The notes under the pieces: generated by a model | What the model was told of the DNA's origin: nothing | Seen by the model: the letters and a program-made list of their open reading frames with translations, nothing else | Database searches by the model: none | Translations under genes and position numbers: made by a program | Part shown: positions 57,108-57,143 of the stretch, piece after piece | How the letters are laid out: the number at the start of each line of letters is the position of its first letter | Numbering within the stretch: position 1 is the stretch's first letter | Assembly (NCBI RefSeq): GCF_030384885.1 | Contig: NZ_CP128613.1 | Direction: 5' to 3' (one strand) | Length of the DNA stretch: 64,000 bases | Source of the DNA: Escherichia coli | GTDB taxonomy: Bacteria > Pseudomonadota > Gammaproteobacteria > Enterobacterales > Enterobacteriaceae

Positions 57108-57143
57108 AAGCTGGATAAAATATTTTTGCATTATATCCAGCTT
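57108..57143 (-). promoter_or_regulatory. 10-bp perfect inverted repeat enclosing a TATAAT, between yfbM stop and the 191-aa gene start
   Basis: aagctggata-N16-tatccagctt; on the minus strand the loop reads ggatataatgc. Confidence 0.4.

Follow-up and report, generated by a model that had tools for sequence, protein, structure and literature searches.

A perfect inverted repeat between yfbM and a SUKH-like gene of Escherichia coli is the inner part of a predicted bulged hairpin that most likely folds in RNA

Introduction

In the Escherichia coli contig NZ_CP128613.1 (assembly GCF_030384885.1) a perfect 10-bp inverted repeat is located between yfbM and a downstream gene for a SUKH-like protein of 191 amino acids, and the strand that codes for both genes carries the hexamer TATAAT at the same position. 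This arrangement raises the question whether the element acts on DNA as the binding site of a repressor, on RNA as a stem-loop, or not at all. A preliminary description of the 64,000-nt stretch of DNA analysed here, referred to as the window, suggested a palindromic operator that occludes the -10 element of the downstream gene and named the terminator of yfbM as an alternative. In the literature on yfbM, yfbN and DUF1877 we found nothing on the spacer between yfbM and the SUKH-like gene. We therefore analysed the element computationally, with respect to its predicted structure, its alleles and its distribution.

Genomic context of the element

The genes in this region are arranged in the order nuoN (+), a bidirectional terminator at 55638-55673, a yfbN-like gene (+), the 191-aa gene (-), a spacer of 151 nt, yfbM (-), yfbL (-) and elaD (-). 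The coordinates of the features discussed below are compiled in Table 1. The window is 100% identical to E. coli strain 2013C-4282. The interval is AT-rich, with 34-37% G+C compared with 52-60% in nuo. yfbL codes for an M28 peptidase.

The assignment of the 191-aa protein is based on a weak match to SUKH-1 (SMI1/KNR4), whose E-value of 0.0016 is below the Pfam threshold, and on its close homologues, which carry the NCBI name 'SMI1/KNR4 family protein'. A PDB sequence search with this protein gave no match. Its family is large, comprising 1,146 representatives, and the nearest relatives outside Escherichia are about 40% identical. The contexts of two of these non-Escherichia relatives were examined. 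In both, the gene abuts its upstream neighbour and there is no comparable spacer; thus, the hairpin described below is not a feature of the family.

Over 6 nt (56478-56483) the end of the 191-aa gene (-), including its stop codon, overlaps that of the convergent yfbN-like gene (+). Consequently, no terminator separates these two genes, and each must be transcribed into the other. The nuoN terminator is strong and bidirectional; it has 16 pairs and is flanked by T-runs at either end. It also draws sub-threshold matches to sRNA-like Rfam entries (STnc40, Phe_leader), which probably reflect a mere resemblance to terminators.

Table 1. Coordinates in the window of the inverted repeat, the predicted stem-loop and neighbouring features.
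Feature	Position	Strand	Remarks
Left arm, perfect 10-bp inverted repeat	57108..57117	.	AAGCTGGATA
Right arm, perfect 10-bp inverted repeat	57134..57143	.	TATCCAGCTT
TATAAT hexamer	57130..57135	-	apical part of the hairpin, 5' side; TGTGAT in allele B
Core bulged stem-loop, 55 nt	57101..57155	-	sense RNA, predicted dG -21.4 kcal/mol
Outer helix of core, 8 bp	57155..57148 with 57108..57101	-
Bulge of core, 5 nt	between outer and inner helices	-	UUAAA
Inner helix of core, 9 bp	57142..57134 with 57117..57109	-
Apical helix, 4 bp	57132..57129 with 57122..57119	-	preceded by a U.U mismatch
Apical loop, 6 nt	57128..57123	-
Extended structure	57091..57170	-	adds two short basal helices
Basal helices	57170..57166 with 57095..57091; 57160..57157 with 57099..57096	-
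25-codon ORF	57100..57177	-	MSGSLNEAFVLKAGYNAKIFYPAYE; covers the hairpin completely, stop at the 3' edge
yfbM (DUF1877)	57205..57708	-	upstream gene, same strand
yfbM / SUKH-like gene spacer, 151 nt	57054..57204	-	no RefSeq annotation
191-aa SUKH-like gene	56478..57053	-	intact in this strain
AAGG, Shine-Dalgarno-like motif	57062..57065	-	8 nt upstream of the 191-aa ATG

The inverted repeat as part of a larger stem-loop

The inverted repeat is present as it had been described, with two perfect arms separated by 16 nt. The distances given for it also hold, since the left arm is 55 nt away from the start codon of the 191-aa gene (57053) and the right arm 62 nt away from the stop of yfbM (57205). 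The hexamer TATAAT was likewise found on the minus strand; four of its bases belong to the spacer of the repeat and the other two to the right arm.

Perfect 10-bp inverted repeats with a spacer of 3-40 nt occur at 14 loci in the window, compared with about 2 expected per 64 kb according to first-order Markov simulations. Hence, the 10-mer by itself is unremarkable and constitutes modest evidence. Its inner arms can be extended to 14 nt with 93% complementarity, and they are surrounded by a second pair of arms at 57098-57108 and 57148-57158 (91%), which is offset by a bulge of 4-5 nt. In the predicted core structure the helices of 8, 9 and 4 bp are stacked and yield an AU-rich, near-continuous duplex of about 21 bp. 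Two helices stacked coaxially, a 5-nt bulge on one side and an apical helix make up the architecture of a single strand and not that of a dyad-symmetric duplex site. The core starts 50 nt past the stop of yfbM and ends 48 nt ahead of the start codon of the 191-aa gene, whose AAGG ribosome-binding motif is located outside the hairpin.

The full structure is far beyond chance and exceptionally stable for a G+C content of about 28%. Folded as minus-strand RNA, the 91-nt region has a minimum free energy of -27.9 kcal/mol (z = -5.0); as DNA, the fold of the element amounts to -15.8 kcal/mol (z = -6.6). For a correction by G+C content, folding energy was regressed on G+C over sliding 70-nt windows, and after this correction the hairpin ranks third of 25,574 such windows on both strands. 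The palindrome is the inner part of a longer bulged hairpin, which in all likelihood forms in RNA transcribed from the spacer downstream of yfbM.

The only better folds after G+C correction are located at 28641-28710 (+) and 5286-5355 (-). Both overlap perfect 10-bp inverted repeats as well. The T tail of the repeat at 28650 is clear on the minus strand; the one at 5308 is weaker.

Alleles of the spacer and the fold of the sense strand

Four alleles of the spacer were assembled from genomes and metagenomes. Of the 13 complete genomes with the element, 12 have allele B. Across the four alleles 97.5% of the pair cells are still paired, and the single broken pair adjoins the bulge. All four transitions in the stem are exchanges between A and G on the sense strand, three of them from AU to GU and one from UG to UA. 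They keep the pairing of the sense RNA, whereas antisense RNA or extruded DNA would have C.A mismatches. The 9-bp cores of the arms, AAGCTGGAT and ATCCAGCTT, are unchanged in all alleles. In the basal part of the extended structure the pairing register varies among the alleles.

The predicted stability of the core on the sense strand is nearly the same in alleles A, B and C (-21.4, -21.3 and -21.0 kcal/mol, respectively), compared with -20.1, -16.7 and -18.5 kcal/mol on the antisense strand. For comparison, six substitutions, corresponding to the observed number and type, were placed randomly in the core in 4,000 simulated trials. Random substitutions reduced the sense fold to -12.9 +/- 4.4 kcal/mol. 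A fold as stable as that of allele B was obtained in 3.4% of the simulations for the sense strand (about 2-5%; p ~0.03) versus 16% for the antisense strand.

The hairpin region of 61 nt (57098-57158) shows 88.5% identity between alleles A and B, while both flanks of the spacer show about 80%, so that the excess of conservation in the hairpin is small. Double-sided compensatory changes are absent from the four alleles, a number at which a covariation analysis has no statistical power. The fold is preserved on the sense strand, although with four alleles and no such compensation the evidence for its maintenance in evolution is weak.

A further inverted repeat (57026-57041 with 57066-57081, 16 nt, 81% complementarity) brackets the ribosome-binding motif and the start codon of the 191-aa gene. 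It gains five mismatches in allele B and is probably not conserved; therefore, it was dropped.

TATAAT and the possibility of an operator

If TATAAT was the -10 element of a sigma-70 promoter of the SUKH-like gene, a dimeric repressor bound to the palindrome could occlude it. In alleles A and C the hexamer is perfect and located 76 nt upstream of the ATG. Furthermore, the invariant arm cores AAGCTGGAT and ATCCAGCTT would agree with such a binding site, and no other strong, conserved promoter candidate was found for the gene. However, allele B, and thus the great majority of the complete carrier genomes (12/13), has TGTGAT instead and thus lacks the key A at the second position of the hexamer. 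A -35 element is missing, the best candidate being GAAGCA at a distance of 18 bp with 2/6 matching bases, and the bases GGA upstream of the hexamer do not form a TGn extended -10. The sigma-70 consensus scan did not call the element. In a position-weight promoter scan, which was built from textbook base frequencies, TATAAT ranked only sixth within its own 190-nt region. The same scan revealed several equally good, non-conserved promoter-like sites in the spacer, as expected in AT-rich DNA.

The geometry of the element is also unfavourable for an operator. The centres of the half-sites are 26 bp, i.e. about 2.5 helical turns, apart. This spacing is unfavourable for a dimer, but a tetramer or a bent complex may be possible. 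The outer arms are displaced by the bulge of 4-5 nt, and consequently no one dyad axis applies to the entire element. Moreover, the substitutions in the arms obey the wobble rules of RNA and not the symmetry of a duplex. A gene for a regulator is not adjacent, since the neighbours encode a peptidase, a DUF1877 protein, a yfbN-like protein and elaD. The preliminary description had also advised searching for the palindrome elsewhere in the genome. With up to three mismatches no second site was detected in the window, and in every carrier the element is present at one place per genome. In all these respects, i.e. the non-conserved -10, the missing -35, the spacing of the half-sites, the asymmetric outer arms, the missing regulator gene and the lack of other sites, the element is unlike the operators of the lac O1, LexA or TetR type that overlap a -10 element. 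What it has in common with them is an inverted repeat including TATAAT upstream of a gene.

Hence, on the basis of sequence comparisons the operator is disfavoured rather than disproved, and we consider it very unlikely. The TATAAT in the hairpin is best regarded as a consequence of the high AT content. This negative outcome is useful, because a perfect TATAAT in a perfect palindrome of AT-rich DNA, with all the looks of a textbook operator, is not conserved and has a spacing and symmetry that are unfavourable for such a site.

Comparison with other element classes

REP/BIME, ERIC and MITE-like elements resemble the present one in being imperfect intergenic palindromes in E. coli. A repeat of these classes, or an operator of a whole regulon, was rejected in view of the single copy per genome, the restriction to 13 genomes, the lack of copies on plasmids and phages and the lack of a second site in the window. 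The covariance models of Rfam 15 gave no match overlapping 57054-57204 at E-values up to 10. An integron attC site was rejected by visual inspection, since the nearest candidates GTTGAAA and ATTTAAA(C) do not agree with the core sites RYYYAAC / GTTRRRY. The GG-N10-GC spacing of sigma-54 promoters, which was also checked by eye, is absent.

The hairpin and the 3' end of yfbM

The alternative that had been named, in which a hairpin would form in the RNA past the yfbM stop, agrees better with the evidence, but the predicted hairpin is not a canonical intrinsic terminator. The missing U-run, which had been pointed out at the same time, is evident from the minus-strand tail AUUUAGCUUCGUUU. One could therefore think of a weak, non-canonical and possibly bidirectional intrinsic terminator, at which most yfbM transcripts would end. 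The stem-loop is strong and follows a stop codon of the same strand at the usual distance. After the hairpin, U accounts for 4 of 8 nucleotides on the minus strand; for the plus strand the count is 5 of 8. From the hairpin to the nuoN terminator there is no other terminator, because the stop of the downstream gene overlaps the convergent stop of the yfbN-like gene.

A stem-loop on the coding strand soon after a stop codon is a resemblance to intrinsic terminators. The stem, however, is long, AU-rich (28% G+C in the inner 36-nt unit of repeat plus loop) and interrupted by the 5-nt bulge and a U.U mismatch. Interruptions are found in the tail AUUUAGCU as well. With U at 4 of 8 positions this tail attains a weighted T-tail score of 1.69, compared with 3.2-4.9 for clear terminators of the same window. 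In addition, the U's of the tail are partly consumed by the basal helix, and the terminator scan did not call the hairpin. Due to the AU-rich stem and the interrupted U tract it would be inefficient as an intrinsic terminator. Termination of most yfbM transcripts at this site is thus unlikely.

With moderate confidence we propose that the stem-loop of the sense strand marks or protects the 3' end of yfbM, or serves for processing, and reduces the read-through that reaches the downstream gene. Hairpins with stabilizing or processing functions in intercistronic regions or at 3' ends are well known from enterobacterial operons, e.g. the RNase III sites of the phage T7 early mRNAs, lambda sib and stem-loops that block PNPase or RNase II. 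Like these, the yfbM hairpin combines a quasi-continuous duplex of about 21 bp and a one-sided bulge with a position between genes of the same strand, a missing U tract and a preserved sense fold. In contrast to them, it is a single locus-specific sequence that does not belong to a family and is part of a dispensable islet. The near-continuous sense duplex of at least about 20 bp and the maintenance of the fold on the sense strand, by which a stabilizer or RNase III-type site would be recognized, were both found.

We infer that the region is transcribed and that the hairpin affects the RNA in the following way. Read-through transcripts from yfbM would fold into the bulged duplex of about 21 bp approximately 50 nt past the stop codon. 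This duplex may be a barrier to 3'-to-5' exonucleases, a processing site of a size suitable for double-strand-specific cleavage (RNase III), or both. The 3' end of yfbM would thereby be fixed and stabilized. A pausing or termination effect would be weak at most and would lower read-through into the downstream gene, so that presumably less intact message would reach the SUKH-like gene. The hairpin is an ordinary feature, namely a new case, specific to this locus, of a known type of element. Even at best it is one more locus-specific mRNA hairpin that uncouples two neighbours in a rare accessory islet, and it matters little.

A small open reading frame across the hairpin

The 25-codon ORF on the minus strand (Table 1) begins with ATG, stops where the core hairpin ends on its 3' side and is open in alleles A, B and C. 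Translation of this ORF (57177..57100) could in principle melt the stem and, as a leader-peptide device, couple downstream expression to ribosome traffic. However, the frame is broken by a 1-nt deletion in allele B2, its ribosome-binding motif is weak, and the seven non-synonymous and two synonymous differences between alleles A and B look neutral. An open frame of 25 codons is not rare by chance in such sequence. Moreover, no terminator is present that a leader-peptide device could attenuate. The ORF over the hairpin is probably fortuitous, and among the explanations considered here the leader peptide is the least credible one.

In a related proposal the hairpin is a cis-acting RNA switch for the orphan immunity-type (SUKH-like) gene. 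Whether yfbM transcripts are continued into the downstream gene or cut would then depend on ribosomes translating the ORF, or on a factor acting in trans to open the stem. We regard such a switch as highly improbable. If it was true, expression of a silent immunity gene would be conditional.

Distribution and loss of the islet

The spacer and the SUKH-like gene are present in only 13 of 5,426 complete genomes. In a protein-guided scan of 100,044 species representatives one locus was found, belonging to one other Escherichia with the 191-aa gene. A 17-mer scan of metagenomes yielded 53 matches, two of which are homologous, and both of these represent allele B. Phage records contain no copy of the element; plasmid records contain a remnant of the yfbN side only and no copy of the element.

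Several genomes exhibit traces of loss. In K-12-like genomes about 440 bp are deleted (window ~56765-57203), and the hairpin, the spacer and the rest of the gene are gone. In strain 779 nuoN directly abuts yfbM. In DSM 103246, a genome with allele B, the SUKH-like gene is split by a frameshift (positions 2424-2998 of the comparison locus L004). Since more than 99% of E. coli genomes have lost the element and a frameshift disrupts the downstream gene in at least one genome with allele B, any function must be dispensable. Between alleles the SUKH-like gene differs at 8.3, 6.8 and 14.1% of the first, second and third codon positions, respectively. This low codon-position bias, together with the frameshift, points to relaxed or diversifying selection and an ongoing pseudogenisation of the gene.

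From these observations the main rival of an RNA stabilizer or processing site emerges. The hairpin may be a relic without present function, i.e. an old terminator or the product of a template-switch mutation. The AT-rich islet around it would have been acquired horizontally and would now be disappearing, and the hairpin would persist only because little time has passed. The occurrence in just 13 genomes and in one of the species representatives, the deletion in K-12-like genomes, the frameshift in DSM 103246, the relaxed constraint suggested by the codon positions and the lack of double-sided compensatory changes are all consistent with a relic. On the other hand, the fold energy is constant across alleles whose flanks diverge by about 20%, and equal numbers of random substitutions preserve the fold in only 2-5% of the simulations. 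The asymmetry between the sense and antisense folds would also be unexpected for a neutral relic. We therefore regard a relic as rather unlikely.

K-12-like genomes retain an unannotated 3' remnant of the SUKH-like gene of about 285 nt between yfbN and yfbM (window 56478-56765; positions 2572-2843 of locus L003). In K-12, association of sigma-32 with the region between the convergent genes yfbM and yfbN has been reported from ChIP-chip work (PMC3738151). The spacer concerned (approximately window 56484-56765) is the region of the SUKH-like gene remnant.

The neighbourhood of nuoN, yfbM and elaD is hypervariable (window 55625-57204 and 58810-59261; loci L002, L003 and L004). yfbP, yfbO, yfbN and the SUKH-like gene occur in differing combinations among strains, and yfbK is absent from the window. 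DSM 103246 carries an ISVsa5 insertion between yfbM and yfbL. As a hotspot of deletion and allele exchange, the nuoN-yfbM interval is more informative than the palindrome.

A mosaic breakpoint is located at the stop of yfbM (57193-57208), where the identity between the window and locus L010 changes from 99.2% over yfbM to about 80% right after the stop. The deletions of the K-12 type and of the strain 779 type are independent, and both end within about 10 nt of the yfbM stop. At 57200..57193 the minus strand contains the Chi-like octamer GCTGGTAG, which agrees with GCTGGTGG at 7 of 8 positions.
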